Assembly (NCBI GenBank): GCA_903889445.1
Contig: CAISXF010000005.1
Coordinates: 151,030-215,029, forward strand
DNA: 64,000 nucleotides
Direction of reading: 5' to 3'
Origin: an uncultured Pseudomonadota bacterium
Lineage (GTDB): Bacteria; Pseudomonadota; Gammaproteobacteria; Methylococcales; Methylomonadaceae
In this document: one piece after another, positions 1 to 19,256 of the stretch
Numbering within the stretch: the first letter of the stretch is position 1
Layout of the letters: every line of letters begins with the position of its first letter
The notes under the pieces: model-generated
The model's input: the letters and a program-made list of their open reading frames with translations, nothing else
Told to the model about the DNA's origin: nothing
The model's database searches: none
Translations under genes and position numbers: made by a program

Positions 1-858
1 TGCGCCTGCATCGACATCAATCATAGCAGCGAAATAAATTGCCGCGACACCACGCATGACTTTAATCGACAAAGGCATTTCCGCCCACAAGGTCTGCAAC
101 GCGACACGATTTTTTTGTTCGGCAGCTTGTTTCAGCAAATTACTAAAAACTTCCGTTTCAACTAATTTCAATTCGGCTTCCATCAACACTTTGTGCGTGG
201 TGAGCGACGGAATTAGTGAACGTAGCGATTGCCAATCTTCGAGTTTTTGATAAGTTTGATGCAGCAAACGTAACACATTGGCTTGTTTGGGATTGATGGA
301 ATGCAAGCGCGTCAAGGTTTCGAGAGCTTGCTCATATTGCTGACCCGATAAATTCAATTCAGCTTGCGTCAAACCCACTGCAATTTCAGAATCGTCGCCA
401 TGTTCAGCGGCAAATTGTAAATACTCATCTCGTTTATCAAACGCGCCACGCGATTGTGCAGCGCGAGCGGCGGTTAAATAATGAATCAACGGCGCACCGC
501 TGTGTGAAGCGTGCTTAATTAAAATCGTTTCAGCCGCTTCCCAATTTCCTTCCGCAGAATCGACCAAGCCTTTGATTAAGGCTTTTTGTGATAACGCTAT
601 TTTGTTATTGGCAACACGCTTTTTGATTTTGGTTGGCAAGCGAACCGTCCAACCGAGCAGGCGAAAGCTAAAATATAATATGAAAAATACCGCAATCAAC
701 ACGCCCAAAAAGACAAATAACGATGTTTCCAACGACCATTGATCAATGCCGATTAACACATAACCCGCGCTGTTCAAATGTGTCAGAAACTGGCTACCGT
801 AAAAAGCCGCGGCGCCCAAACCACCTAAAATAATTAAAAGAAAAAGCATTTTTTTCAT
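1..858 (-). CDS. hemY: HemY (heme-biosynthesis-associated membrane/TPR protein), N-terminal 286 codons; 3' end lies beyond the left window edge
   Basis: Open minus-strand frame from ATG 858-856 to position 1, absent from the ORF track because it has no stop in the window. Translation MKKMLFLLIILGG..GYVLIGIDQWSLETS..AEGNWEAAE..HYLTAARAAQSRG resembles E. coli HemY. It sits after hemX as in hemCDXY. Confidence 0.85.
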   Translation of the reverse strand, partial: MKKMLFLLIILGGLGAAAFYGSQFLTHLNSAGYVLIGIDQWSLETSLFVFLGVLIAVFFILYFSFRLLGWTVRLPTKIKKRVANNKIALSQKALIKGLVDSAEGNWEAAETILIKHASHSGAPLIHYLTAARAAQSRGAFDKRDEYLQFAAEHGDDSEIAVGLTQAELNLSGQQYEQALETLTRLHSINPKQANVLRLLHQTYQKLEDWQSLRSLIPSLTTHKVLMEAELKLVETEVFSNLLKQAAEQKNRVALQTLWAEMPLSIKVMRGVAAIYFAAMIDVDAGA

Positions 859-870
859 GATGAATTTCTC

Positions 871-2022
871 TTATTGTTGCGCGGAAGGCGTGGTTTCAAC
901 TGCAACAGGCGCAGATTTCGCGGGACTTGAGAACGCTTTATCGGTTTCAATTCGCAATTTCGTAATGTCGCGCAACATTTTCAGCGACAAACTAATATCA
1001 GGGAATTGGCTACGAATCCGCACTTCAGCAATTTTATCCAGCGACGCGGCAAAGCGATCCGCTTCTTTTTCTTTAGCGAAATTTTGTAGTAACCATTTTT
1101 GCGCGTCACTTAAACTCGCTTGATAAAGTAAATCGTTTTGCTGAACGAGAGCGACGGTAATAATTTCTAATTTCACCCGCAATTGCTCACGAATAAATTG
1201 CGCTTGTTCGGGCGTTAAAATTTCGTTGACGTGTTGTTGAACGTGGCGAATCGTCACCATGGTTTCCAATTGCCCCATCAAATCTTTAGGTTCTTTTTTA
1301 ACGTCTGGCGCAACGGGTTTAATCGTTTCATCTTTACCCGCGTAAGGCAAAAGCAAAGTCAGCGAATCAATTTGCGTTTCCAACATTTGCAACGTCGAAT
1401 AAATACCGACAACATCTGCGGCATTGACGCGACTAATAGCGGCAATATCTTTCGCCAATTGTTCACGCACTTTATACGCTGCGGCATCACCACTTTCGCG
1501 CAAACGTTGATCGGCAGCTTCCAGAGCTTCTTTTGTGGTATTGACATCGCCCATCAAAAGTAAGCGTTGATTTGCCACACTCAACAAATACTCTGCGTCT
1601 GCTAATAACCAATCGCCGCGCGTTTTACCTAATTGGCGTTGTAATTTTTGAATTTCTTCGGATAATTCTTTGCGCGTTGTGTCTAATTTTTCGCCGTGTA
1701 ATTTTGAGAATTCAGTGACGCTATTCGTGAAATGTAATTCTTTATTACCCACTTCAGTTTGAACGGCGGCGAGCTGTGATTGAATTGCCGCAAGTTGCGA
1801 TTGATAATCGCTGATTTGTTGCGACACGGCACCTTTTACTTCGCCGCCCAAACCTTCTTGTTTGTCGCGCAATTGCGAAAGAAAATAATAGCCTGCGCCA
1901 GTAACGACAGCGATAACTAATAAAATGATTAAGCCAAACCAAAATCCGCTGCGAGAACGTCTGACCTCTGGCGGTGTATCTTTGACAGTTTGTTGTTCAA
2001 TCGCTTCAATCAATTCAGCCAC
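871..2022 (-). CDS. hemX: HemX (membrane protein often annotated uroporphyrinogen-III C-methyltransferase)
   Basis: 383-aa ORF with an N-terminal TM segment (FWFGLIILLVIAVVTGAGYYF) followed by coiled-coil repeats (QSQLAAIQSQLAAVQ). It lies between hemD and hemY and overlaps the hemD stop by 8 nt. Confidence 0.8.
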   Translation of the reverse strand: MAELIEAIEQQTVKDTPPEVRRSRSGFWFGLIILLVIAVVTGAGYYFLSQLRDKQEGLGGEVKGAVSQQISDYQSQLAAIQSQLAAVQTEVGNKELHFTNSVTEFSKLHGEKLDTTRKELSEEIQKLQRQLGKTRGDWLLADAEYLLSVANQRLLLMGDVNTTKEALEAADQRLRESGDAAAYKVREQLAKDIAAISRVNAADVVGIYSTLQMLETQIDSLTLLLPYAGKDETIKPVAPDVKKEPKDLMGQLETMVTIRHVQQHVNEILTPEQAQFIREQLRVKLEIITVALVQQNDLLYQASLSDAQKWLLQNFAKEKEADRFAASLDKIAEVRIRSQFPDISLSLKMLRDITKLRIETDKAFSSPAKSAPVAVETTPSAQQ

Positions 2023-2791
2023 TTTCTTCCCCGTTTATTATCGTCGTTATTGTATTAAGAATTGCGTCATCTGACGGTGTTTGCGCGAGTGCGATAGTTT
2101 CAAAACCGAGATTTTTTGCAATGGTTCGAATGCGCTCGCTGACTACTATTAAAGGTATTTTTTTTAACAAATCGTGTTGCGATTTTGGCAACATTTGCAC
2201 TAAATTTTGTATCGCTTCGCCGCTCGTTATCGTCATTAAATCTAAACGTTTTTCCGTGATTAACTGCGACACTTCGCGGCAATCGATTTGCGGAATTTCA
2301 CGCCGATAAACATTTTCATAATAAACATTTGCGCCACGGTTTTTCAATGTTTCTGCTAACATTTCACGTCCATTTTCACCCCGAATTATCACGATATTTT
2401 TCTGTGAAACATGCTGTAATTCGGATAAATCTAATAATGCCTCACTATTATAACCATGCTGAGGCATTAAATCGACGTTCAAACCGACAGTTTTTAAGGC
2501 TTGCGCGGTCGCTTGACCGATTGCCAAACACGATTTTGTTTTCAAGTCGCGCATTTTAGCATCATCCAACTGTGAACAATAACAACGCACCGCATTTGTG
2601 CTGGTAAAAATAACAAAAATTGCCGATGTTAAACGCTGCTCAATTTCGGCTTCGCTTAAAATTATCGGAATAATTTCGAGCGTTGGCAAACGAATCGGAA
2701 TGCCATTATGAGCGTGAATTAACGCGCACAAATTTTCGGCTTGATGTGCGGGGCGCGTGACTAAAATTCGCGCTTGTTTTAAATCAATCAT
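2015..2791 (-). CDS. hemD: Uroporphyrinogen-III synthase
   Basis: 258-aa ORF. The N-terminus ..ILVTRPAHQAENLCALI.. matches the HemD pattern (E. coli MSILVTRPSPAGEEL). Operon position is directly upstream of hemX. Confidence 0.85.
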   Translation of the reverse strand: MIDLKQARILVTRPAHQAENLCALIHAHNGIPIRLPTLEIIPIILSEAEIEQRLTSAIFVIFTSTNAVRCYCSQLDDAKMRDLKTKSCLAIGQATAQALKTVGLNVDLMPQHGYNSEALLDLSELQHVSQKNIVIIRGENGREMLAETLKNRGANVYYENVYRREIPQIDCREVSQLITEKRLDLMTITSGEAIQNLVQMLPKSQHDLLKKIPLIVVSERIRTIAKNLGFETIALAQTPSDDAILNTITTIINGEESG

Positions 2792-2794
2792 CGT

Positions 2795-5470
2795 TTAATC
2801 ACGCGATTGAAAATGTAAAAAATCAATCAAACGCATGGATTCGCTGACTTCGTTATGCGGTAATAACAGATATTTCCATGATTTTGTCGTCACTTTTTTA
2901 GCGTGAACAGATGCATTTTGACACCATGTTTTTGCGGCAATCGCTTTGGATTGTACTTCTTGCGTGTCAATGTCGTTTTGCGCTTTGGTTTCGACCATAA
3001 AAATACTGGTCTCCGTTTCAGCGATAAAATCAGGAATATATTCGGGCTGTTCTGTACCCGATTTATAGTAAATCTGGAATTGACCTTTAACTGGTTTGAA
3101 CCATTTCAACGCATCGCGTTCAAGAATAATAGCAAAACGTCGCTCTGTATCCGAATCAAATTTTTGTAGCGGGTATAAACATTTTTGAAAACCGCTAAAA
3201 ATCATTTTTTTGATGTTTGCTTTATCCACTAGGGTTTCACGAAAATAACGCGCTTTTTGTTCGGTTGCCGTGTAGTTGCACGGTTTTAATTCCGTAAAAC
3301 CGCGACTAATTTTAACTTCATAATCCGTCGCTTGTTCCCAAAAATGCGCCACCATTTGTGCGTGAATTTCTTTGGCAATTAAACGATTATCGTGGTGTAA
3401 AACATTTTTGGCATTGGCTTCAGATAAGTAACTTCGCAAATGTTCAACCATTTGACCAGTCAAATCATAAAGCAATTCGGATTGGGTGAAATAATCTATA
3501 TCTTCAAAATCAACCAACGCATGAATCAGATAATCTTCTAATCGTGCCTGTTTTAATCCTGTTTCAGCCGCCAGAGTAAATTGTTCATTGGTTCGCAAAT
3601 TCTGTCCCACAATTTCATGTTCGCGTGCTTGCAAATGCAATTTGCTAATGTCGAGTTTAAAAGGATGAAAACCTGTTGTGATTTCACCTGTTGGCACAAC
3701 AGTGATTCGAGGAATATCGATAGTTTGTTGTACAACTAACTCCGTTGTTTTGCTTACTACTTGAGATAAATCAATTTTTTCTTCCGTGAAAATGCTTGCT
3801 TGATTTGGTCTTAAACGTTCTGTGACTTCCGCGAGAATTTCTTTTTGTACCTGTGCATTGAGCAACGCGCCACTGGTTGGCACAAAATCACATTGTGTTT
3901 CAAATGAACGAATAACATCTAAGGTTGTTTTTGCCGCCAACAATTCCGATTCAGAAACAAATAACGGGGGCTTTTCTGTTGTTGATTCGGAATTTTTTAC
4001 GATGCCAAGTTTCGTATAAAGGTTTGATTCGACGTAAACACTGATTTTTTGTTCTTGTTCATTCGGTTTTTCTAAAATCACTTGTTTCAATCGAATAGGA
4101 GAATCACCTCGATTGGCTGCGTCGATGATTTCTTGAAATTTATCATGTGCCACAATGTTTAAACGGTCTACCGCATCAATGCCTGTGCGCTTTCCATAAG
4201 GCAAACGCAATCCCCGTCCAATCGATTGTTCGATCAAGGTTCGGGCATTCGCCGCACGCAACGGCACAATTGTATAAAGATTGGTCACGTCCCAACCTTC
4301 TTTAAGCATATTGACGTGAATCACAATCTCGGTTGGTTCATCGACACTTTCCACCGCCAATAATCGCGCAATCATGATTTCTTCTTCTGCGCCCGATTTG
4401 CTCGAATCAACTTGAATCACTTTGCCGCGATAACGTCCCTCATGAAATTGCTCAGATTCTATTAGCGTTAATAATTGCGCGGCGTGCGTGGTATCGCGTG
4501 CAATTACCAACATAAAAGGTTTCACTAATTTGACGTTGTTTTCACGCGAATACGTTAAAAGTTCGACTTTCGTGGTTTCGTGCAAACGCACGCCGTCTTC
4601 TAATTTTATTTTTTCAAGTTCTTCGGGCGAATAGGCTTTTACATCAAAACCACGTTGCGTCACAACAGCGGGTTCTTTGACAAAACCGTCTTCCATTGCA
4701 CGCGCTAACGGATAATCAACAACCACATTTTTAAACGGTATCGGAGCGCGTGAAGTTTCAACAAAAGGTGTGGCAGTGAGTTCTAAACCTAACAAGGGTT
4801 TAAGTTCGTTAATGGCACGCATTCCCGCTTGAGCGCGATAACGGTGCGATTCGTCCATCAGCAAAACTAAATCAGGCAATTCCGCCAAATAATTAAAATA
4901 GCTGTCGCCCAGATATTCGGATAAACGTTTTATTTTGGGTGATTTTCCACCGCGAACTTCAGACGTGATTTTGGCAATGTTGAAAATGTTAATTGAAATC
5001 GCGCCAAAAATATCCAGCGCACGACCTTTGGTCTCGTAGTCATCGCCAGTAATGACTTTCGGCGGATTGATGGCAAATTCTGAAATGCCTTTGAACACAT
5101 ATTTCGGCGTGTTGGGCGTGAAATCTGCGATGAGTTTGTTATAAATCGTTAAGTTTGGCGCGAGGACAAAAAAATGATTGATGCCGTGTGCAAGATGTAA
5201 ATAGGAAATAAATGCGCCCATCAAGCGCGTTTTGCCCACGCCCGTCGCTAATGCAAAACACAACGATGGAAAATCACGCTCAAAATCTTCAAGCGTCGAA
5301 AACTCCATTTTTAACGTTTCTAAAATCGCCGTTAAATCACGCTCTTGTTTTAAAACATCGGGCGATAAATCGATGGTTTTTGCAAGACTGGTTAGCGATT
5401 CGGCTTGTGGCGCACGCAACGATAATCGTCCGATAAGATTGTGAAGTATTTTTGATTTCATGTTTTCCAT
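2795..5470 (-). CDS. res: Type III restriction enzyme Res subunit (SF2 helicase plus C-terminal PD-ExK nuclease)
   Basis: 891-aa ORF with Walker A ALATGVGKT, DExH box LLMDESHRYRA and a helicase C region ..IGRGLRLPYG... A C-terminal nuclease-like motif YIPDF..x13..MVETK is present. It lies downstream of a mod gene on the same strand. Confidence 0.85.
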   Translation of the reverse strand: MENMKSKILHNLIGRLSLRAPQAESLTSLAKTIDLSPDVLKQERDLTAILETLKMEFSTLEDFERDFPSLCFALATGVGKTRLMGAFISYLHLAHGINHFFVLAPNLTIYNKLIADFTPNTPKYVFKGISEFAINPPKVITGDDYETKGRALDIFGAISINIFNIAKITSEVRGGKSPKIKRLSEYLGDSYFNYLAELPDLVLLMDESHRYRAQAGMRAINELKPLLGLELTATPFVETSRAPIPFKNVVVDYPLARAMEDGFVKEPAVVTQRGFDVKAYSPEELEKIKLEDGVRLHETTKVELLTYSRENNVKLVKPFMLVIARDTTHAAQLLTLIESEQFHEGRYRGKVIQVDSSKSGAEEEIMIARLLAVESVDEPTEIVIHVNMLKEGWDVTNLYTIVPLRAANARTLIEQSIGRGLRLPYGKRTGIDAVDRLNIVAHDKFQEIIDAANRGDSPIRLKQVILEKPNEQEQKISVYVESNLYTKLGIVKNSESTTEKPPLFVSESELLAAKTTLDVIRSFETQCDFVPTSGALLNAQVQKEILAEVTERLRPNQASIFTEEKIDLSQVVSKTTELVVQQTIDIPRITVVPTGEITTGFHPFKLDISKLHLQAREHEIVGQNLRTNEQFTLAAETGLKQARLEDYLIHALVDFEDIDYFTQSELLYDLTGQMVEHLRSYLSEANAKNVLHHDNRLIAKEIHAQMVAHFWEQATDYEVKISRGFTELKPCNYTATEQKARYFRETLVDKANIKKMIFSGFQKCLYPLQKFDSDTERRFAIILERDALKWFKPVKGQFQIYYKSGTEQPEYIPDFIAETETSIFMVETKAQNDIDTQEVQSKAIAAKTWCQNASVHAKKVTTKSWKYLLLPHNEVSESMRLIDFLHFQSRD

Positions 5471-5483
5471 TTGTGTGTCGATA

Positions 5484-5544
5484 TGCGGCTAAAGCCGCAC
5501 CTATATTTGTGTTTGTGATTATCGTAGGTGCGGCTTTAGCCGCA
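5484..5544. repeat. REP doublet (REPIN), head-to-head, 19-nt spacer
   Basis: 5484-5504 tgcggctaaagccgcacctat is the inverted partner of 5524-5544 GTAGGTGCGGCTTTAGCCGCA. Each unit is itself a hairpin (tgcggc/gccgca). The left unit has a degenerate head (ATAG instead of GTAG). Confidence 0.9.
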
Positions 5545-5550
5545 TTGTAT

Positions 5551-6006
5551 TTATAACCATATCGCGTCCCAATGCGAATAATCGCCGATGTTTTTTACCA
5601 AGTTGGCGCGCAGTGGATTTGCCACAATATATCGGGCAATCGATTGAACATCTTCCTCTTCGCGCAACGCATGGTCATAAAAATTCCTTTGCCATAACGT
5701 TCCATTTTGTCCTAAATAACCATTGATTTCACGCGCCGAACGACCTTTAAAAACACCAACTATTTCAGATAAAGATTTTGTTGTTTCTCCTAACTGAAAT
5801 AACCAATGCACATGGTCTGGCATAACAACCCACGCCATCGAATAAACAATTTTTTGTTCGTGCAATAATTTCATATTTTGAACCACTAAACGAGCGCACT
5901 TGAAATTCTCAAAATAACGCGCCTTTCGATTTGCAAGCACCGTTGTTACAAAATATGCACGTCCATTTTCACTAAATCGTCCTTTGCGTAAATCATCATA
6001 AGCCAT
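5551..6006 (-). mobile_element. rayT: REP-associated tyrosine transposase (RAYT, IS200/IS605-like HUH Y1 transposase), 151 aa
   Basis: From ATG 6006: MAYDDLRKGRFSENGRAYFVTTV... It carries the HUH motif VVMPDHVHWLFQ and the catalytic Tyr region ARYIVANPLRANLV. REP doublets flank it on both sides. The 186-aa ORF in the track is an upstream read-through across the REP doublet. Confidence 0.85.
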
Positions 6007-6027
6007 TGTTAAAATTCCTAATTTAAA

Positions 6028-6085
6028 TGCGGCTAAAGCCGCACCTACAGTTTTTAATAATTTTGTAGGTGCGGCTTTAGCCGCA
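6028..6085. repeat. REP doublet (REPIN), head-to-head, 16-nt spacer
   Basis: 6028-6048 tgcggctaaagccgcacctac and 6065-6085 GTAGGTGCGGCTTTAGCCGCA are perfect 21-nt inverted copies. They lie in the 97-nt gap between the mod stop (6104) and the RAYT start (6006). Confidence 0.92.
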
Positions 6086-6103
6086 TTGTAATCACATAAC
6101 TCA

Positions 6104-7825
6104 TCAATCAAACAAATCCATCGTACCGTTATCTTTGCGTTTTACCGATTCAAACGATTTCAAATCCGACGGTTGCGCCATCGGTAAATTCGCCACATTC
6201 AAACTGTAATCATCATGTCCCCATTCACAACGCGCCAAAATCATTTTGGGGATTTTTTTAAGCGTTAAATTCGCCCAACGTTCCACCGCCTCCGTACCAC
6301 TCACACCATGAAACGCACTGCAACAAATCAACAAACTTTGCGTGCCGACTTCTTCCGAAAGCATCTGCAATTGTTGCGCGGAAAGATTTTGCGTCGTGAC
6401 GTAAATAAAATCATTTTCGGACGAATAACCGTGTTTCCACCACTGCGTTTCAGAGGGCGCGTAAGTGAAACCTTCTAATTTCGCTAACGCTTCGGCTAAC
6501 ATCGCAGGATTATATTCAGGATTGATAATTTCCATGCCCCAACGGTCTTTAATAATCAAAGTCGGCGCGAGTTTGTAATAACGAAAACCACCGCCACCTT
6601 TCCAATTCACCGTTTTAGAAATCCCGCCTTGGTCTTCGCCATCAATCACTTTTTGCAAACGCGGCATAATATGCGTGTGGCAATGTTCACCGAGTTCAAT
6701 CATTATCCAACGTCGTCCCATTTTTTGAGCCACTGCACCTGTTGTGCCTGAACCTGCAAAGGAATCTAAAACAAGGTCGTTTGGATTTGTGGCAATTTCG
6801 AGAACACGTTTAATTAAACGTTCTGGTTTTGGAGTTGCAAATAGTTCAGAGGTTGTCACGTCTGGAAATAGTTTTTTTAGTTCATATTTGGCTTGTCTAT
6901 TATGTCCAGTTGCATCTAAATCATCCCATATTGTTGAAGGGGATAATCCACCTTGGTCTGCCAAATATGTTTTTTTAATTACACGAGTTCCATCTTTTGA
7001 AAAAACGAGTTCTTTACGGTCAATCATTTCTTGTACCCGTGATTCACTCCAACGCCAACCATTTTTAGGCGGTTCAATTTCTACACCCGTAGGACTAAAT
7101 ATAGTAAATCGCAAATTTGGTCTTGGATTTGGTGATGATAAATTTCCTGAAAACCAGTCGCCTCTTGGGTCATTATCTGGATTTGAATAATGGGCATTAG
7201 AGTCATCGGTTCGAGCTAAAGGAATACTTCGCCAACCTGTGTTTTTTGAATAAACCAATATCTGGTTGTGGTCTAAAGAAAATTGTTTTGCGTCATTATT
7301 TGATGAATCTGCTGATCGCCAAGCTATTGAAGCTACAAAACATGAACGTCCAAACAATTCATCACACAACACTTTCAAATAATGCGCTTCGTTGTCATCA
7401 ATCGTAATCCACAATGAACCGTCATCAGCAAGCAAAGAACGGATAATTTCTAAGCGGTCACGCATCAAACCGAGCCAAATCGAATGTTCTAAACCGTCAT
7501 CGTAATGTTGGAATGCGCTGCCTGTGTTGTAAGGCGGGTCGATAAAAACGCATTTAATTTTGCCTGTAAATTCTTGTTCTAAGGCTTTGAGTGCAAGCAA
7601 GTTGTCACCGAAAATCAAACGGTTGTCAAAAATATCTTGTGTAGGTGCGGCTTCAGCCGCATTGTTCGACGACGTACCATTTGTTGCGGCTGAAGCCGCA
7701 CCTACAAATGGGAATCGTCTAAATTTTGCATGGTAGGATTTTTCTTTGTCTTCAAGCAGAATGCGTGGCTCTAAACGTGGGCGTTTTTCTTTGCCAATCC
7801 ATGTTAGTTCTAGTTTTTGTTTCAT
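6104..7825 (-). CDS. mod: Type III-like DNA methyltransferase Mod (beta-class N6-adenine/N4-cytosine MTase)
   Basis: 573-aa ORF. Motif IV FIDPPYNTG comes before motif I DSFAGSGTTG, which is the beta permutation. The N-terminus KLELTWIGKEKRPRLEPRILLED is typical of Mod-type methylases. It is upstream of and co-oriented with res. Confidence 0.85.
   Translation of the reverse strand: MKQKLELTWIGKEKRPRLEPRILLEDKEKSYHAKFRRFPFVGAASAATNGTSSNNAAEAAPTQDIFDNRLIFGDNLLALKALEQEFTGKIKCVFIDPPYNTGSAFQHYDDGLEHSIWLGLMRDRLEIIRSLLADDGSLWITIDDNEAHYLKVLCDELFGRSCFVASIAWRSADSSNNDAKQFSLDHNQILVYSKNTGWRSIPLARTDDSNAHYSNPDNDPRGDWFSGNLSSPNPRPNLRFTIFSPTGVEIEPPKNGWRWSESRVQEMIDRKELVFSKDGTRVIKKTYLADQGGLSPSTIWDDLDATGHNRQAKYELKKLFPDVTTSELFATPKPERLIKRVLEIATNPNDLVLDSFAGSGTTGAVAQKMGRRWIMIELGEHCHTHIMPRLQKVIDGEDQGGISKTVNWKGGGGFRYYKLAPTLIIKDRWGMEIINPEYNPAMLAEALAKLEGFTYAPSETQWWKHGYSSENDFIYVTTQNLSAQQLQMLSEEVGTQSLLICCSAFHGVSGTEAVERWANLTLKKIPKMILARCEWGHDDYSLNVANLPMAQPSDLKSFESVKRKDNGTMDLFD
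7641..7705. repeat. REP doublet (REPIN variant, tail-to-tail, 23-nt spacer) embedded in the mod coding sequence
   Basis: 7641-7661 GTAGGTGCGGCTTCAGCCGCA and 7685-7705 tgcggctgaagccgcacctac. This is the same 21-mer as the RAYT-flanking REPs except the loop is TTCA rather than TTTA in both arms. It is translated in-frame as ..FVGAASAATNGTSSNNAAEAAPT.. of Mod. Confidence 0.9.
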
Positions 7826-7878
7826 CGTGTTTAAAGTTTCCTAAAAGGTAGCGAGCGACAATCTAAGCTCTTCAAATT

Positions 7879-8442
7879 TCATTGCAACACCCATTCAATT
7901 TTAAAAAGTGTTCGTTCGTGTATTTTCTGCTCTAACTGCTTTTCAAGCTCTTCAATCAAGTCATTACGTTCAGCTTCAATTTTATCCTGATTAACAAACA
8001 ACTCACGCCGTAATTTACTGCGCTTGGTTTCAAGTTCACGTTGCTGTTTTTGCCAATGCAATTTTTCTTCAAGTGTTGGCGAACCCGAAGCCGTGCGGCG
8101 AACTTCTTTAATTTCACGGTCGATTTCTTTAATTTCCTGTTCTAAACCGTGTTTCAAATCATCCGCCCACGCATCGAGCTTTTCAACTTCTAAGTCAAAA
8201 TAACCTAAATTACGTTGATTGATGTCACGCAAAAGCATAGATTTTCGCGTTTCAATATCGTTTAACAACGGCGTATCTTTTAATTCAAAATCTGTCGCAG
8301 GTAAAACGTGTGCGGGAATACGCAATAATTTTTCAGGGTCATATTCTTCCAAAACACTGCCATCGAACTGACAAGCTGAAACAATTAAATGTTCTTCGAC
8401 GTTTCCGAAACATTCACAACAAACAAGCTCACACTCAACCAA
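7879..8442 (-). CDS. C-terminal part of the SNF2-family protein (coiled-coil tail), separated from the body by a frameshift
   Basis: 187-aa frame opening at a TTG directly after an in-frame TAA. It overlaps the end of the 8385-10775 frame by 58 nt. The sequence is highly charged with heptad-like repeats: EIKEIDREIKEVRR..KRSKLRRELFVNQDKIEAERNDLIEELEKQLEQK. No independent ATG or SD was seen. Confidence 0.6.
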   Translation of the reverse strand: MVECELVCCECFGNVEEHLIVSACQFDGSVLEEYDPEKLLRIPAHVLPATDFELKDTPLLNDIETRKSMLLRDINQRNLGYFDLEVEKLDAWADDLKHGLEQEIKEIDREIKEVRRTASGSPTLEEKLHWQKQQRELETKRSKLRRELFVNQDKIEAERNDLIEELEKQLEQKIHERTLFKIEWVLQ

Positions 8443-10775
8443 CCCGATTTACCACGATGATTATTTTTAAGCGTGCTGATTTGATTGCCATAACCATCAT
8501 AATCGAAAACCAAACGCGCCACGGGAAGCGTGCGACTTTTAGCTTGTTGCAAAAGCCATTCAGCCAACGGGTGTCCCAAACGATACAAATGCGCTTCACC
8601 TGTACGACGTGGCAATTCATAACGTCCAAGTGCAATGTCTTTTAAATGGATATTCGGCAATTGTTCAAGCACAAAACCACGCCCATCAAATTCTGCACAA
8701 TCGTGTAATTCTGACCGTGTTAAATCCATTAACATTTTTTCAAAACGATTCCGCACCGAATAACTATCTTCGGCGCAAATTCGTAATTTCTCTTGAACTT
8801 GTTCATCAAAATGATCGAGTAAAATTTGGCGCGTTTTGACCATCGCATCGTTAATTTCACCTGATAACTCACGTTGCAATTGTTCAAAACTATTTTTGAT
8901 TTCGTTTACATCGCGGCAATTTTGATAAATATCCGCAATGCGCTGCTCAAAATCAATGCCTGAACCAATTGCGCCTAAGACTTCATCACTCGCCCCAAAA
9001 ACACCTTCAAACAATTGAAATTTTTGCGCTAAAAGCTCATAAACTCGCGCATCGGCTTCATTGCTACGGTCTACAAAATTCACGACGACCACATCAAATT
9101 TTTGTCCGTAACGATGGCAACGACCAATGCGCTGTTCAATACGTTGTGGATTCCAAGGCAAATCGTAATTGATAACGAGCGAACAAAATTGAAGGTTAAT
9201 GCCTTCTGCACCTGCTTCGGTTGCAATCATGACGGTGCCGCGTTCTTTGAATTCTTCAACAAGTGCGGCGCGGATGTCCGCTGTTTTAGAACCTGTAATA
9301 AAATCAGTGCCTGCGTGACGTTTTAACCATTGTCTGTAAATTTTCTGCGCCCGAGCATCGCTATTGGTGCCATTAAACAAAACAATGCTTTCACCATAAT
9401 GCGTTTCCGCCAGCAATGACAAAAGATAATCTTGCGTTCGCCTAGATTCAGTAAAAATAATGGCTTTTTTGGGTGCGCCTAAACGTTCTAATTCGACAAA
9501 TGCACGTTCTAACGCGGTCAAAAGTGCTGTTCCTTTTGCATTTTCACGAATGTTCGTCGCTAAGTTTTTAAAATGCCGCAGCTCTTTAATTTCTTGTGCA
9601 ATCGCAATTTTTTCTTCTGTATTCAACAAAATTTCATCATCGATTTCACTGCCCCATTCATCACTAATTTCATCCAGCGATTCAAAATCATTGTCCAATT
9701 CATCAGAAAGATGAGGCACATCTGTCATTTCATTTAACAGATTTTGCAAACGATTCGCCATTGTTTCCAATGCACCTGCAATGGCGTGTGTGGAAGAAGC
9801 GAGTAATTTCCAAAGCACCAATGAAATCAGTTGTCGTTGACCTTGTGGAAGAGCTTTAAGTTGTGGGCGACGCAAATAATCCGCGACAAGATGGGTTAAT
9901 TCTTTTTCTTCAATCGAAGGTGTAAATTCTTGAACGATTGCTCTGCGTGCCGTGTAAGAAACATAAGGCTGAACGTGATAACGCAATGTGCGTTTACAAA
10001 TAGGCGCAAGTCTGTTTTTCAACTGTTGAAACGCCACGCTTTTCCCTGAACTTGAAAATTGCGCCCGAAAACTGTCTAAATCACCAAAAATACGGTCATC
10101 AATAATACTGACCAAACCATATAATTCCAGCAATGAATTTTGCAGCGGCGTTGCCGTGAGCAATACTTTCAAATGAACTTTTTCTAAGGCATCTTTGATT
10201 GTTCGCGCAATGACGTTGCTGGGTTTATACACGTTACGCAATCGATGTGCTTCATCATCAAGGACAACCAAATGCCAATCAACGGCTTTGATTTTGTCGG
10301 CTTTCGTTTTCGCGAACTGATACGAACATAAAACAATTTCGTCCGATGTCGAAAATGGATTTGAATTCTGTTTTTTGGCGATGAGGTTATAGTTTTTCGT
10401 TTCAAGAATGAGACTTTTCAAACCGAATTTGTCTTGTAATTCTTGATACCACTGTTTGCGTAAATTAGCGGGAACAATAATTAAAATGCGTCGCCGCCGT
10501 TCTGCCCAATGTTGAGAAATGACAAGCCCAGCTTCAATCGTTTTTCCAAGTCCCACTTCGTCCGCGAGAATAACGCCTTTCGAGAGTGGATTTTTACAAG
10601 CAAACAAAGCTGCATCAACTTGATGAGGATTTAAATCAATTTGTGCATCCACTAAAGTCGAAGCAAACGATTCCATTGACTCACTCGACGAACGACGAGT
10701 GAGTAACCATGCGTAGAATTGGTTTTGATAGGGTGTCAGCAAATCATTTTTCACACTGCTTTTTAACTCAGCCAT
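8385..10775 (-). CDS. SNF2/RAD54-family (SF2) ATPase, N-terminal 796 codons; probably one roughly 960-aa gene with 7879-8442
   Basis: Motif [11 protein letters not shown], motif [14 protein letters not shown], and helicase-C motifs ..[12 protein letters not shown].. and [21 protein letters not shown] 10775 overlaps the hemC stop (the ORF-track start 10778 is a TTG one codon upstream). Confidence 0.85.
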
Positions 10776-11697
10776 CAATCAATGCTTTCAAAATTTCAGC
10801 CGCGCCTTGCTTGAGTAATTCATCGGCAATACTTTCGCCAATTTCAATCGCATTTTCAGCGTGACCACGTTGTTCAGCGCGATAAATAACGCTGCCGTCA
10901 GGATTTCCGACTAAACCACGCATGAAAATTTCGCCGTCGTTCAATTCAGCAAAACCTGCAATCGGAACTTGGCAACCGCCATTTAATCTGGCATTCATGG
11001 CGCGTTCAGCGATAACACAAATTGCAGTCATTTCATCGTGCAACGCTTTTAACATTTCGTTAATTTCAACATCATCAACGCGGCATTCAATGCCAATTGC
11101 ACCTTGTCCGCACGCAGGCAAACTGGTTTCAATTGGCAAACGTTGGCTAATTCTATCCGCCATGCCTAACCGTTTCAAACCAGCGGAAGCCAAAATAATT
11201 GCGTCATATTCGCCCGCGTCGAGTTTTGCTAATCGAGTATTCACATTGCCGCGCAACGATAAAATTTCAGCCTTCGGAAAATGCGCTTTGATTTGACATT
11301 GACGGCGTAAACTCGACGTGCCGATTCGAGCATTTTCGGGCAATTCGTTGAGATTTTGATACTGATTCGACACAAACGCATCGGTCGGATCTTCGCGTTC
11401 CAAAATCGCGGCGAGGTGCAAACCTTCGGGGAAATCAATCGGCACGTCTTTCATGGAATGCACCGCAATATCGGCATTCCCTTCGAGCATTCCTTGTTCG
11501 AGTTCTTTTACAAACAAACCTTTTCCGCCAATTTTGGCAAGTGGCGCGTCGAGAATTTTATCGCCGCGCGTCACCATTTTAACGAGTTCGGTTTGAATAT
11601 GAGGAAACGCTTTCTGTAAAAGCGCGGCGACGTGTTCGGCTTGCCAAAGAGCTAACGGACTTTGACGGGTGGCAATTCGGATAATTTTAATAGTCAC
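10768..11697 (-). CDS. hemC: Porphobilinogen deaminase (hydroxymethylbilane synthase)
   Basis: 309-aa ORF with N-terminus [18 protein letters not shown] and the ..[21 protein letters not shown].. signature of HemC. Confidence 0.95.
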
Positions 11698-11726
11698 TTG
11701 GAATTAAACAGTTAGAGTTAAAAGTG

Positions 11727-11761
11727 GTAGGTCGAATTCATTTTAGTGAAATTCGACCTAC
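11727..11761 (-). terminator. Stem-loop after valS (12-bp perfect stem), likely intrinsic terminator; REP-like GTAG heads
   Basis: gtaggtcgaatt (11727-11738) pairs with aattcgacctac (11750-11761) around an 11-nt loop. On the minus strand it begins 6 nt after the valS stop and is followed by CACTTTTAAC. Confidence 0.6.
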
Positions 11762-11767
11762 TCGAAA

Positions 11768-14566
11768 TTACAACGCGCTAATTTTAACGTGTTGAGTTTG
11801 TAAATTGCCCAAAGTCGATTGCAATTCAGCTAAACGTGAACGTTCTTTTTCAAGGACGGCGGCAGGTGCTTTTTCAACAAACGACGGATTGCTTAATTTC
11901 ACGTCGATGCGTTCCAATTCGGTTTGAAGTTTCAAAATTTCTTTATCCAAACGCGCCAATTCGGCGGTTTTATCAATCAAACCCGCAATCGGAATCAAAA
12001 TCTGCATTTCACCGACAATCGCAATCGCGGATTCTGGAGCAATTTCATCCGCATTCAACCACGTCATCGTTTCCAAACGCGCCAATCGGTTCAAATAAAC
12101 ACGATTCGTTTCTAAACGTTCCGCATCTTGCGGCGAACCATTTTGCAATAAAACGGGTAACGGTTTGCTCGGCGCAATGTTCATTTCACCGCGAATTCGA
12201 CGCACGCCCAAAATCACCGCCATCAACCAATCGGTATTTTGAACGGCATCATTATCAATCTTCGATTCGTCCGAAATCGGATACGGTTGCAACATAATCG
12301 TGTCGCCTTCGATGCCAGCAAGTGGCGCGACACGTTGCCAAATTTCTTCGGTAATAAACGGAATAATCGGATGCGCCAAACGTAAAATTGTTTCTAAAAC
12401 GTGCAACAAGGTTTTGCGCGTGCCACGTTGCAACGCTTCGTTATCCGATTGCAATGCGACTTTGGTCAATTCCAAATACCAATCGCAGTATTCATTCCAA
12501 GTAAAATCGTAAATTGCTTGCGCCGCTAAATCGAAACGGTAGTTCTCAATCGCGTGGCTGGTGGTTGAAATGACTTGATTCAAACGCGCCACAATCCAAC
12601 GATCAACGTGTGAAAATTCACATTCGCCCGTGATGCCACAATCGTGTTCTTCGGTATTCATTAAAACGTAACGCGCGGCATTCCAAAGTTTGTTGCAGAA
12701 ATTGCGATAACCTTCCGTGCGAGCCATATCAAAACGAATATCACGCCCCGTCGAAGCCAATGACGCAAACGTAAAACGTAACGCATCCGTGCCGTAAGAT
12801 TGAATCCCGTCAGGGAATTGTTTGCGTGTAGCTTGTTCAATTTTTTTCGCAAACTGCGGTTGCATCATGCCCGCCGTGCGTTTCGCAACGAGCGTTTCTA
12901 AATCAATGCCGTCAATAATGTCAATCGGATCTAACACGTTTCCTTTTGATTTCGACATTTTTTGCCCTTCGGCATCACGCACTAAACCATGAATGTAGAC
13001 TTCTTTGAACGGCACTTCGCCCCGAAATTTCAAACCCATCATAATCATCCGCGCCACCCAGAAGAAAATGATGTCAAAACCTGTCACCAAAACGCTCGTT
13101 GGATAGAAGGTTTTCAAGGATTCGGGTTCATTTTTGCCATCCCAACCTAATGTTGAAAATGGCCACAGTGCTGACGAAAACCAAGTATCTAAAACGTCTT
13201 CGTCTTGTTTCAAAAAGTAATCAGTGGGCAAATGATGTTTTTCACGAATTGCCGCTTCGGATTCGCCAACGTAGATATTGCCTTTGTCGTCATACCACGC
13301 AGGAATGCGATGTCCCCACCAAATTTGGCGCGAAATACACCAATCGTTAATGTTTCGCATCCAATCAAAATAAGTGTTTTTCCAATTATCTGGCACAAAT
13401 TTAATATCGCCATTTTCAACAGCGGCAATCGCAGGCGCGGCAAGTGGCGCGACTTTCACATACCATTGGTCAGTCAAAAATGGCTCGATGACACTTTGGC
13501 TACGGTCGCCGCGTGGCACCATCAATTTATGATCAACGATTTTTTCGAGCAAACCTGCCGCTTCAAAATCCGCCACGATTTGTTTTCGTGCTTCAAAACG
13601 GTCTAGCCCACGGTATTTTTCAGGAATCAGCGCGTCATCATCGATACTCGCATTGGCGGTCAAAATGTTAATCAAACCGCCACGCGGCAAATCTTGAATC
13701 GCCGATGTGTCGCGGTGTCGCATCCAAACTTCGTAATCGTTGAAATCGTGCGCGGGCGTGATTTTGACGCAACCCGTTCCGAATTCGGGGTCAACATAAT
13801 CGTCGGCAATAATCGGAATTCGACGACCCGTCAAAGGCAATTCGACAAACTCACCCAACAAATGTTGATAACGTTCATCTTTCGGATTGATAGCCACCGC
13901 AGCATCACCGAGCATCGTTTCAGGGCGCGTCGTGGCGACGATTAAATGACCTTGACTGTTCGACAACGGATAACGCAAATGCCACATAAAACCGTTTTCT
14001 TCTTCAGATAAAACTTCTAAATCCGAAACCGCCGTGTGCAAAACTGGATCCCAATTTACCAATCGTTTGCCGCGATAAATTAAGCCTTCTTCGTGCAATT
14101 TAATGAACACTTCTTGCACCGCACCCGACATTCCGTCATCCATCGTGAAACGTTCGCGCGACCAATCCAATGAGGAACCCATCCGACGCAATTGGCGCGT
14201 AATCGTGCCGCCCGATTCTTCTTTCCATTCCCAAATCTTTTCGATGAATTTTTCGCGTCCATAATCGTGGCGCGTTTTACCTTCGGCGTTGCACAAACGC
14301 TCGACCACCATTTGTGTTGCAATCCCCGCGTGGTCAGTTCCCGCTTGCCACAACGTGTTGCAACCTTTCATCCGATGATAGCGCGTCAACGCATCCATAA
14401 TTGTGTCTTGAAAAGCGTGTCCCATGTGCAAACTGCCCGTCACATTCGGCGGCGGAATCATGATGCAATACGGTTTGCCTTCGCCGCTCGGCTCGAAATA
14501 CTGATTGGTTTCCCAATTTTCATACCAACGTTGTTCAATATCGTGTGGCGCGTACGTTTTTTCCAT
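11768..14566 (-). CDS. valS: Valyl-tRNA synthetase
   Basis: 932-aa ORF with HIGH-type motif [21 protein letters not shown], and a C-terminal coiled coil. Confidence 0.97.
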
Positions 14567-14600
14567 GAGCTTTTCCTGATGAGTTTTTAAAATTAGAAAT

Positions 14601-15227
14601 TTATTTTTTTAAACGGATTGCAATTATCGCAGACAAAATCAGCACCACGACTGAAAAAATTAACAAAATTGTCATTGGCACACCGATATTTTGATTTTTA
14701 GCTGGAACAACGTCAGGCAACGCTTCGAGCTGATGCGCCACCGGTAGATCTAACATTACGTCTTTTGTCATCGGTGGATAACACACACCGCGTTCCGCAC
14801 ACCCTTGAAAATACGCGCGTAATTTAACGGTTTGTGCGCCGTGATCTTCGCGCCACAATGGCACATTAAAATTCAAATCTTCGGATAAAATTTCAACATT
14901 CCCAAAGGCTTCGTCATGTTTTGGCTCACCATTTGGAATCGTGTAATCGCCGAGTTTTACGCCCTCACTGTTGACTAATTCGAGTTTGATTTTTTCGCGA
15001 TACAAATAATAATTCGGCGCAATTTCCCAACTCACATAAATCGTATTGCTATTTTTAACGTTAGCCGAAAATTCAAAGGCTTGCTCAGGTTGCAATAATT
15101 GATCTCCAAATAAATTTAATTTCAACGCAGACGCATTTTTAACTAATTGCTCAAGCGAATCTGCTGCAAATATTGGCGAATTGAATAAAGCGAAAACGAT
15201 TACAAAAATTAAGCGATAACGTGACAT
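14601..15227 (-). CDS. Standalone DsbD-alpha (N-terminal domain)-like periplasmic thiol-disulfide protein with a C-terminal TM anchor
   Basis: From ATG 15227: signal peptide [21 protein letters not shown], then ..[31 protein letters not shown].. (nDsbD active-site CxxxxxC context). It ends in the TM segment [20 protein letters not shown]. The longer ORF-track start (15329) adds a non-signal leader. Confidence 0.65.
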
Positions 15228-15344
15228 GAGCGTATCCAAATAAATAATCAGGCGTGGTTTAGCAACATTATCGTAGAAAATAAGCAAGTTTGCCTTTATA
15301 TTGTCGGCAATTGACCTTTTACATTTCACCTTGAAGCTAATTTT

Positions 15345-15764
15345 ATGAACATTTTTCGTCTATTTTTTATTGCGATTGTCGTTATTTCGTTTGCTGAACT
15401 TTATGTTTTGATTGCCGTTGGTAGCGTTTTGGGCGCATTGCCAACCATTTTTTTGATTCTGGCGAGTGCGGCGTTGGGGTCGTTTTTACTGAAACAACAA
15501 GGGCTGGCGACGTGGCAACGTTTTCAAACTTCGATAGCGCGACAAGAAATGCCCGCTTATGAATTAGCAGAAGGTTTTTTAATTTTGCTCGGCGGCGCAT
15601 TATTATTAACACCAGGTTTTATAACGGATGCCGTGGGGTTGATTTGTTTATTGCCTTCGTTACGCGGCAAAATTATCGCTTATGCGATGAAATGCTATTC
15701 TTTTGTGCCACAAAATAAAAATGACAATGTGCTGGAAGGCGAATTTCGTAAAGATGTTGAATAA
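15345..15764 (+). CDS. fxsA: FxsA family inner-membrane protein
   Basis: 139 aa with 3-4 TM segments and the FxsA signature LLLTPGFITDAVGLICLLP. Confidence 0.8.
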   Translation: MNIFRLFFIAIVVISFAELYVLIAVGSVLGALPTIFLILASAALGSFLLKQQGLATWQRFQTSIARQEMPAYELAEGFLILLGGALLLTPGFITDAVGLICLLPSLRGKIIAYAMKCYSFVPQNKNDNVLEGEFRKDVE

Positions 15765-16508
15765 ATGACCCTTTTACGCGCTTTTTTCTGCCAAATTTTC
15801 GGGCTTTTGCTAACGTTCGGTTTGGCTTATTGGTTGCCAATTTTTCATCATCCGATTGTGTTTTTAGTTACGCAAAGTGGCTTGGCGGTTGGCAGTGCAT
15901 TTTTACTGCGTCAACCGTCGTGGTGGATTCCGATACATTTATTATTTTTACCCAGCATATTTATTTTTTTTACACTGGCGTTGCCGTCGTGGTTTTATTT
16001 GATAGCTGTGGTGATATTGACGCTTATTTTTTGGGGAACTATTCGCGGTGATGTGCCGCTTTTTTTATCGTCAACGGAAGTCACCGAAGCGGTTACAGTG
16101 TTGTTGAAAAAAGAAAATGTTCAAGCGTTTGTTGATTTGGGTGCGGGTGTCGGTTCAGTCGCAATTCCCATTGCAAAAAAAATTCCAACTATAAGCGTCG
16201 AAGCGTGGGAACATGCGCCATTACCGTGGTTAATCAGTGTGTTTCGCGGACGACGTTTGTTAAACTTTACCGCTTCACGCCGCAATTTTTTCACTGCCGA
16301 TTTTTCAAAATACGACGTAATTTTTGCCTTTTTATCGCCGAGAGTTATGCCCGAAATCAGCGAAAAATTGAAAGGCGAAATGCGAGCGGGAACGTTGTTT
16401 ATTTCGTCGTCGTTCCCCGCGCCAAACTGGCAACCCGAAAGCATTCTCCATATTAACGACCGCCTCAAAACCGTGTTGTTTTGCTATCGTATTGTTAGCA
16501 AGATTTGA
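15765..16508 (+). CDS. Membrane-anchored class I SAM-dependent methyltransferase-like protein
   Basis: 247 aa. The N-terminal half is hydrophobic (about 3 TM segments). The C-terminal half carries SAM motif I FVDLGAGVGSVAI. Its ATG directly abuts the fxsA TAA. Confidence 0.55.
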   Translation: MTLLRAFFCQIFGLLLTFGLAYWLPIFHHPIVFLVTQSGLAVGSAFLLRQPSWWIPIHLLFLPSIFIFFTLALPSWFYLIAVVILTLIFWGTIRGDVPLFLSSTEVTEAVTVLLKKENVQAFVDLGAGVGSVAIPIAKKIPTISVEAWEHAPLPWLISVFRGRRLLNFTASRRNFFTADFSKYDVIFAFLSPRVMPEISEKLKGEMRAGTLFISSSFPAPNWQPESILHINDRLKTVLFCYRIVSKI

Positions 16509-16530
16509 CGCATCAAATACACGCGGTAAA

Positions 16531-18705: not shown

Positions 18706-18716
18706 CTTGTTTTTCC

Positions 18717-19243
18717 CTAAATTCGCCACTGAAAATTCACGTTCAGTGCATTGACTTTATCGCCACTCGCGGTCGATTTGTAATCCGTGCCTTTGGTCAG
18801 TAAATCGCCATATTGATAACTCAACGACACTTTTGCATTGTGTCCATCAATCACATAATTCATACCCGCTTCGTACACGTTACGCCCTGTGCTGGCAGTG
18901 GGAGCAACATCCACATAACGCACCAACGGTTGAACTTGACCGATTAACACTTTTTAACACTTTTTGCGGAAATAAATACATTCCACTGACATTCATTAAC
19001 GGCATTACCTTCAAATATTGAAAATCCGTCACCTGCAAGGCGTGAAGCCATGCTGTAACCATTCGTAATATCGTAATTTTTGCATTCGCCATTGAATGTC
19101 ACGACACCTCGAAAAATAAGTAAATTAAAAATAATTGTTGTTTTTAAACCTACTCGTGTATCGGCAATGCAACAGTGTTCTATAAAAATTCTTTGTACAA
19201 ATGGACTTGTGCAGCGGCTTCCCTGCTGACAATTGAACAGCAT
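18717..19243 (-). pseudogene. 5'-truncated, frameshifted remnant of an outer-membrane porin-like gene
   Basis: Three overlapping short frames cover the region (18944-19243, 18880-19092, 18717-18950). The last reads ..[42 protein letters not shown], which looks like beta-barrel C-terminal strands. A 10-bp tandem duplication at 18946-18965 accounts for one frame break. There is no room for an N-terminus before the uvrD stop. Confidence 0.35.
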
Positions 19244-19256
19244 TAGCCACTGAAAT

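Follow-up and report, generated by a model that had tools for sequence, protein, structure and literature searches.

In the 64-kb stretch of contig CAISXF010000005.1 that was analysed here, hereafter the window, hemC and hemD of a freshwater (lake), methane-oxidising member of the Methylococcales are separated by a cassette which is probably a Type III-like restriction-modification (R-M) system with an accessory SNF2-family ATPase and a slot for embedded genes. The cassette probably came in without an integrase at the point where the hemC stop and the hemD start overlapped, and the insertion appears to be old, polymorphic and eroding and may be expressed by read-through. According to this explanation, the cassette would have entered the Methylococcales chromosome exactly at the hemC-stop/hemD-start overlap and in doing so would have copied some 15 nt, perhaps some 35 nt, of its target. 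With the left copy, SNF2 would have received the old hemD start codon, the hemC-stop overlap being preserved, and the right copy would have rebuilt a hemD start 3 nt past the res stop, so that hemC and hemD would both have stayed whole. From then on the insertion would have diverged together with its host and persisted as a recombining presence/absence polymorphism and not as a fixed anchor. The cassette would here lack a promoter region that belongs to it and would therefore owe its transcripts to read-through starting at the hem (or valS) promoter, with translation coupled at both junctions and with the expression of hemDXY passing through the cassette.

All coordinates are positions within the window, and the hem genes and the cargo are on its minus strand. 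Genes were called from open reading frames (ORFs) and from matches to Pfam, NCBIfam/TIGRFAM and PADLOC profiles, together with comparisons to structures in the PDB. The order on the minus strand is valS, hemC, SNF2, mod, RAYT (a REP-associated tyrosine transposase), res, hemD, and hemX (Table 1). The distance between hemC (10768-11697) and hemD (2015-2791) is 7,976 nt. Eighty gammaproteobacterial loci were fetched with HemC, and in each of the 77 that extend beyond hemC a HemD match follows within ~0-330 nt, while SNF2, Mod, or Res was found between them in 0 of these 77. Thus, the initial annotation was right that hemC and hemD usually adjoin in gammaproteobacteria and that about 8 kb of cargo lies between them here. 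The gap is real because independent assemblies agree on it: two of them, L131 and L132, match the window with 99.95% identity and 0 gaps over 17.8 kb. An assembly or binning chimera was ruled out, the same structure being present in independent ENA, NCBI, and Logan assemblies. No second copy of hemC or hemD and no Rfam family was found within the window.

The state of the site before the insertion is given by cargo-free relatives. In L001, the nearest genome locus (~92% nucleotide identity to the window), there is no cargo, and homology ends at window position 10761 and restarts at 2792, with the two breakpoints overlapping by 16 nt on L001. Cargo-free relatives read ...TTGATTG ATGGCTGATTTAAAA CAA..., where the ATG of hemD overlaps the TGA of hemC as ATGGCTGA, and the sequence of the empty-site junction is ATTGATGGCTGATTTAAAACAA. 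A single copy of ATGGCTGATTTAAAA is present in cargo-free L001, L093, L004, L002, L003, L005, and L095. These alignments indicate that the segment is an insertion into a hemC/hemD pair that ancestrally overlapped.

In the window there are two copies of this target. The left copy (10775-10761) is ATGGCTGAGTTAAAA and the right copy (2791-2777) is ATGATTGATTTAAAA, and both align to the single ATGGCTGATTTAAAA of the cargo-free relatives. An imperfect 15-nt duplication of the ancestral hemD start therefore flanks the cargo, and the earlier statement that there are no flanking direct repeats has to be withdrawn. The two copies match at 11/15 positions in the window and at 13/15 in L081, another occupied locus, where the left copy is identical to ancestral ATGGCTGATTTAAAA and the right copy matches at 13/15 positions. 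Local alignment of the two junctions by itself was not significant; the 15-nt repeat is accepted because both borders overlap on the empty-site sequence. There is, in addition, a possible decayed extension of the repeat by ~20 nt into the 3' end of hemC (p about 0.02-0.03). At the left border, ATGGCTGAGTTAAAA runs directly into SNF2 and the hemC-stop overlap ATGGCTGA is kept; the first five SNF2 codons in the window, MAELK, come from the ancestral hemD start and codons 2-5. The N-termini of this SNF2 family are usually M..QLLTPYQ, and MADLK, MAELK or MTDLE followed by ..VKN.LLTPYQ is seen only in the hem-located copies. Because only these copies have such a start, SNF2 has taken over hemD codons 1-5 along with the hemC-stop overlap, and its N-terminus is chimeric, with the hemD codons in front of family sequence. 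At the right border the res TAA and ACG are followed by ATGATTGATTTAAAA CAAGCG..., giving TAA-ACG-ATG with the hemD start 3 nt past the res stop; the target copy at this junction is also given as ATGNNTGATTTAAAA.

Machinery that could have brought the cassette to this site was searched for. Searches with Pfam, NCBIfam, and PADLOC profiles revealed no integrase or transposase domain in the cargo except in the nested RAYT, and no tRNA was found in positions 1-20000 of the window, as had been noted from the first inspection of the sequence. The cargo has no terminal inverted repeats or transposon-like structure but only REP-derived repeats, and neither the fetched flanks nor the part of the 64-kb window near the cargo yielded a recombinase. 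Thus, neither the border integrase or recombinase domain nor, within 1-20000, the tRNA that would mark an integrase-mediated genomic island is there. RAYT was ruled out as the insertion agent because the borders carry no REPs and the RAYT gene itself lies nested between mod and res.

Insertion of R-M gene complexes with target duplication and without mobility genes was reportedly described by Nobusato et al. in 2000. Target duplications in the absence of any other mobile element have been documented for inserted R-M systems of Types I-IV; the repeats often span start/stop sites and keep the targeted gene whole, and both an insertion into an operon-like structure and the fusion of genes at the junction are on record (Furuta, Abe and Kobayashi 2010, PMC2853133), an R-M insertion in an operon-like cluster being cited there from Sekizaki et al. 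2001. In that study an insert had to carry R and M within <20 kb and no other mobile element, the empty site had to align to one repeat, and the duplication had to be >30 bp. The hem insert, at 7,976 nt, carries mod and res, its sole mobility-type gene is the nested RAYT away from the borders, and the seven cargo-free loci named above align to one copy of the repeat. As in the published cases, there is no integrase, the repeat spans a stop/start site, the junction contains a gene fusion, and the insert sits in an operon-like cluster. Unlike them, the hem insert has a clear repeat of 15 nt, which with the possible ~20 nt more is to be set against the 30-bp threshold that the 112-nt repeat of a sister cassette in L086 exceeds; its cargo is a three-component SNF2-Mod-Res set and not a plain R-M pair; and its first gene captures the start codon of the downstream gene. 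By this analogy, the mode of insertion has precedent among R-M systems, operon-like clusters included. Defence hotspots between core genes without recognisable mobile elements are also known (Hochhauser et al. 2023, PMC10121019; Johnson et al. 2023, PMC10250203). Like these, the hem site is a fixed site between core genes, its occupancy varies in close relatives, and no mobilisation is identifiable; unlike these, it is an 8-nt stop/start overlap in an operon, and the cargo joins its neighbours without spacers.

Cassettes were also found at the pyruvate dehydrogenase gene lpd. In L086, which has a homologous one that agrees in full with the published definition of such insertions, lpd is followed by SNF2-AIPR-mod-toxin-antitoxin-res and then by a 112-nt duplicate (92.9%) of the lpd 3' end (9821-9932 and 19397-19508), and the C-terminus of res continues into this duplicate. 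In L102 (2000-4060), and also in L094, lpd is followed by two small cassettes, one with a 238-aa ORF and the other with a BrnT/BrnA-like pair, each of which has a ~40-nt copy of the lpd 3' end behind it; beyond these two cassettes come a mod fragment in decay and then hemD. The arrangement in L102/L094 looks like tandem accretion and a rearrangement that joined the lpd site to the hemD side of the cargo. Direct repeats on both sides of a cargo, here and at lpd, could also mean that the cassette is a non-autonomous element integrated site-specifically by a recombinase acting in trans. In that case the 15-mer would be the attL/attR core and the attachment site would contain TGATTTAAAA; the two successive L102 cassettes, each with its lpd copy, resemble accretion at an attachment site, and an identical hemC/SNF2 junction in two lineages fits site specificity. 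However, the hemC/hemD and lpd 3'-end targets have no convincing common core, their repeats differ in length (15 vs 112 nt), the two 15-mer copies differ at 2-4 positions, and no recombinase was found in any of the sequence mentioned above. In addition, the cargo-side junction sequence is common to the window and to L088, a more distant lineage, which argues for a single inherited event and not for repeated targeting. We therefore consider integration by a trans-acting recombinase to be very improbable and retain a single integrase-free entry with target duplication.

As to what the cassette encodes, the initial annotation had listed an SNF2 ATPase with a separate coiled-coil tail, a mod, a RAYT/REP element and a res, all on the hem strand. 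SNF2, mod, RAYT/REP, and res on that strand were confirmed, but what had been read as a coiled-coil tail is SNF2's C-terminal third, cut off from the rest by a real 1-nt deletion. Mod has the motifs DPPY and FAGSGTTG and is homologous to EcoP15I Mod (1e-33) and PDB 6K0W (2e-45). Its central recognition region differs between the window and the L081 allele, with a non-homologous stretch at 6841-7331; it thus has what is expected of a Type III Mod, namely, an N6-adenine methyltransferase of the Mod type with a variable central recognition region. Res matches the restriction-endonuclease C-terminal family NF046055 at 1.4e-30 and, distantly, EcoP15I Res at E 1e-6, and it has the SF2 helicase-type ATPase and the C-terminal endonuclease of a Type III Res, a class assignment made by profile and homology. 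The best NCBIfam and PADLOC matches of SNF2 are DrmD models (NF038318, 663 bits, cut-off 950; PADLOC DrmD PDLC02619), while its best PDB match is RapA. Even an intact homologue of 963 aa, P0001, scores 670 bits and matches profile positions 19-653 of 868 but not the C-terminal third, so that neither the window fragment nor the intact protein reaches the DrmD equivalog cut-off. In the window, the C-terminal part of SNF2 matches positions 751-857 of 868 of the DrmD_b profile and is colinear with P0001.

Two known kinds of system come close to this gene set. Like class 1 DISARM (DrmD-DrmMI-DrmA-DrmB-DrmC), the cargo starts with an SNF2 DrmD-like helicase followed by an N6-adenine methyltransferase; unlike it, no cargo ORF has the domains of DrmA, DrmB (DUF1998) or DrmC (PLD nuclease), and a Type III Res is in their place. 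Like Type III R-M of the EcoP15I type, the cargo has mod and then res on one strand, a Mod homologous to that of EcoP15I, and a Res with a ResIII helicase region and a C-terminal endonuclease region. It differs from Type III R-M in being headed by a conserved SNF2 ATPase gene, in having a variable slot between SNF2 and mod, and in the distance of its Res from EcoP15I Res. Based on the Mod and Res profile matches, the sub-cut-off SNF2 score and the lack of DrmA, DrmB, and DrmC, we propose that the cargo is a Type III-like R-M pair with an accessory SNF2 ATPase at its head and not DISARM. MANTIS (Gao_RL) was ruled out as a match because it has an AAA+ ATPase with MtsB, and BREX-related systems were ruled out because those have PglZ. 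In relatives, the slot between SNF2 and mod is occupied by Fic (L088), GmrSD (L081), AIPR (L086), KilA-N with DUF6119 (L089), or IS256 with Abi (L133, a Salmonella IncFIB plasmid). The SNF2-Mod-Res architecture is widespread, and this position in it appears to be a conserved slot where defence genes are embedded.

The hem-located cassette is not confined to one strain. Another allele of the same arrangement, from the same recombining population, is carried by L081-L085; there SNF2 is intact (963 aa), GmrSD separates it from mod, and the recognition region of Mod is a different one. The hemC/SNF2 junction recurs in L088, where the 3' end of hemC is 92% identical to cargo-free L004, which is its closest match, and only 78.6% identical to the window. 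Cargo and host have diverged about equally since the nucleotide identity of SNF2 between the window and L088 is 84.8% and that of hemC between the window and L004 is 86.1%. In a third lineage, L094/L102, the mod fragment is broken (residues 404-439 with stops) and lies 43 nt upstream of hemD. The guanine-plus-cytosine (GC) content of the cargo is 40.7% compared to a window mean of 41.4%, and its tetranucleotide usage is not an outlier within the window; a foreign composition of the cargo was looked for and not found, the compositional outliers being hemC and valS. Between alleles, dN/dS is 0.08-0.17 in the cargo and 0.03-0.14 in the flanks, which indicates that the cargo has evolved under purifying selection. 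The sequence comparisons indicate that the junction is old and that the cargo has been functional for most of its time there. The initial annotation had allowed that the arrangement might prove to be old and fixed, with host-like composition. The junction is indeed present in at least two lineages with a remnant in a third, and GC and tetranucleotides are host-like; but the cargo is a polymorphism and is not fixed because sister lineages keep the intact ancestral junction without a scar.

An old junction does not by itself date the arrival of the cassette in this host, as it could have formed once elsewhere and been brought in recently, together with hemC/hemD flanks, by homologous recombination. 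Compared with L081, the window is a mosaic in which tracts of 100% identity stand beside tracts of 77-95%. One tract, window 1890-3390, is 100% identical from the 3' end of res across hemD into the 5' end of hemX (hemD dS 0.012; the HemD proteins are 100% identical), and another, window 14555-17554, is ~100% identical over 14.5-17.5 kb. This mosaic argues for frequent homologous recombination across the locus in the population. Alleles have exchanged the slot gene and the recognition region of Mod, and cargo-free sister lineages exist, both of which fit a recent arrival as well. If this were the case, then co-imported flanks should show as a bubble of divergence at the junctions against cargo-free L001/L093, but there is none: the borders are 93-95% identical and the rest about 92-93%. 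Between lineages, the cargo has also diverged about as much as the flanks, and the composition is host-like. Recent horizontal arrival is therefore unlikely in our estimate, and we continue with an old insertion that has diverged with its host.

Erosion of the cassette is evident in this strain, with mod and res still open. SNF2 is frameshifted into 796 + 187 aa by a 1-nt deletion near 8416; sequencing error was ruled out as its cause because the identical split is present in L131 and L132. From SNF2 to mod there are 57 nt, in which what is left of the two ends, 5' and 3', of a Fic gene has been fused; this gene is intact in L088 (2987-4217), where the Fic domains were confirmed: the 5' end of the remnant matches the start of the L088 Fic gene, and its 3' 54 nt match the L088 sequence after Fic at 53/54 positions. 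A REP doublet at 7640-7708 adds 23 in-frame residues (…FVGAASAATNGTSSNNAAEAAPTQ…) to Mod between the N-terminal ELTWIGKE motif and the methyltransferase core, and the same allele was found again in independent assemblies. The spacer between mod and res is filled by RAYT with REP doublets on both sides; RAYT is above its family cut-off (150 vs 80 bits) and is flanked by inverted REP pairs, as expected of a RAYT/REP element. The REP core TGCGGCTWWAGCCGCA has six matches in the 64-kb window, every one of them inside the cargo (5483-7708), with 0.05 expected by chance, and RAYT/REP within the window therefore looks cargo-associated and not genome-dispersed.

Promoter-like and terminator-like sites are present at chance frequency, with 26 terminator-like sites compared to 20.7 +/- 5.1 in shuffled sequences, and there is no convincing terminator at either border, in agreement with what had been noted earlier. 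The insertion is on the hem strand and, with no excess of terminators, it does lie in the transcription path of the hem genes as the initial annotation had claimed. The junctions are tight, as the hemC stop overlaps the SNF2 start and 3 nt separate res from hemD, and both are compatible with translational coupling. In plasmid-borne and Tn7-borne relatives (L091 and Salmonella plasmids), a small helix-turn-helix gene is found just upstream of SNF2, and hemC is in that place here. Because promoter-like and terminator-like sites are at chance level, the borders are compatible with coupling and hemC stands in place of the helix-turn-helix gene, the simplest model would be read-through from the hem or valS promoter, and co-transcription of the cargo with the hem genes is plausible.

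From this position in the transcription path it had been argued at first that the operon anchors the cassette, that is, the cassette is kept because its deletion or a polar mutation in it would harm hemDXY expression, and the position thereby stabilises a defence module. The tight junctions and the lack of a terminator excess agree with this, as does the maintenance of the arrangement across diverged lineages under purifying selection. However, the nearest sisters (L001/L093, and L004 for L088) have the exact ancestral junction and no cargo, scarless absence is common, and the direct repeats are a built-in path to precise excision. Internal decay by frameshift, Fic deletion, and REP insertion is tolerated. 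Linkage of hemC and hemD is itself not obligatory in the clade, as hemD is apart from hemC in L096, L097, L094/L102, L134/L135, and L136. In L096 (9457-9990) a 110-aa secreted-protein gene with its own terminator is between the two; in L097 (1-925), L134/L135, and L136 hemDXY adjoins unrelated genes; and no cargo remnants are detectable upstream of hemD in L096, L097, and L134-L136. The anchoring argument is thus weak, and we regard it as quite improbable that the operon holds the cassette in place.

Several points also weigh against the explanation that we favor, an old integrase-free insertion with target duplication that is expressed by read-through. The clear duplication is just 15 nt, of which 4 are mismatched in the window and 2 in L081, and is below the >30 bp by which a long target duplication is defined, and the extension of the repeat into the hemC 3' end is only marginally significant. 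Vertical descent with repeated scarless loss and interlineage spread by homologous recombination fit the data alike, the window and L081 being strongly mosaic. There may be a promoter within res or elsewhere in the cargo. The SNF2 frameshift leaves ~0.5 kb untranslated upstream of hemD and the strain persists across samples without apparent harm, which argues that hemD is not strictly dependent on coupled read-through; the separation of hemD from hemC in several relatives argues against strict dependence as well.

The features of the locus are collected in Table 1. Elsewhere in the window, 16494-19284 holds the gene of a 732-aa methyl-accepting chemotaxis protein and a 99-aa ORF, which are absent in the closest cargo-free loci, L001 and L093, and are at least partly present in L081 and L131.

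Table 1. Features of the hemC-hemD region in the window
Feature	Position	Strand	Remarks
valS	11768-14566	-	5' of hemC on minus strand
hemC (hydroxymethylbilane synthase), intact	10768-11697	-	TIGR00212, 383 bits; PF01379, PF03900
hemC stop TGA	10770-10768	-	within SNF2 start region
Left copy of duplicated target, ATGGCTGAGTTAAAA	10761-10775	-	ancestral hemD start codon and codons 2-5
SNF2 gene overall	7879-10775	-	two frames
SNF2-family ATPase, N-terminal 796 codons (DrmD/RapA-like motor)	8385-10775	-	premature TAA end; PF00176, PF00271
SNF2 1-nt deletion site	8415-8417	.	GTTG-TGAATG vs GTCGTTGAATG in relatives (alignment)
SNF2 C-terminal part, shifted frame	7879-8414	-	within ORF 7879-8442, the "coiled-coil tail" of the initial annotation
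Remnant of deleted Fic gene, SNF2-mod slot	7826-7882	-	5' codons MKFEE... and 3' flank retained
mod, Type III-like N6-adenine methyltransferase	6104-7825	-	PF01555; PADLOC MTase_III, E 2e-214
REP doublet, in frame, N-terminal part of mod	7640-7708	.	69 nt, 23 aa
REP doublet (inverted pair), upstream of RAYT	6021-6092	.	
RAYT (REP-associated tyrosine transposase), nested between mod and res	5551-6005	-	NF047646, 150 bits (cut-off 80); PF01797
REP doublet, downstream of RAYT	5483-5553	.	
res, Type III-like (SF2 helicase-type ATPase and C-terminal restriction-endonuclease region)	2795-5470	-	PF04851; PADLOC REase_III PDLC03648, E 2e-211
res stop TAA	2797-2795	-	
Right copy of duplicated target, ATGATTGATTTAAAA	2777-2791	-	working hemD start
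hemD (uroporphyrinogen-III synthase), intact	2015-2791	-	PF02602
hemX, operon continues	871-2022	-	PF04375; hemY next in L131

The repeats of 15-35 nt at hemC/hemD and of 112 nt at the lpd 3' end, together with the tandem L102 cassettes that each carry an lpd copy, raise a broader idea, which we offer as a long shot. The SNF2-slot-Mod-Res family might be a self-mobilising unit, without promoter or integrase, that enters the ends of housekeeping genes and stop/start junctions by target duplication, borrows host transcription and translational coupling, and later seeds rearrangements that break operons. If this is the case, then it would seed rearrangements that split operons, such as the lpd...mod-remnant-hemD hybrid in L094/L102.

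In the narrower explanation, that of a single old insertion, the locus would be a natural case, resolved to the base pair, of a defence cassette entering an operon without breaking it: the target duplication would pass the old start codon to the incoming gene and rebuild one for the displaced gene. Since the loci compared include empty sites, both live alleles, a further lineage with the cassette, and one with a decayed remnant, the life history of the insertion, from gain through allele swapping and erosion to loss or rearrangement, can be traced from metagenomes. It also suggests that being wedged within an essential operon gives no guarantee of permanence. The case would extend the known insertion of R-M systems with target duplication to a widespread SNF2-Mod-Res architecture and would not be a new kind of system.

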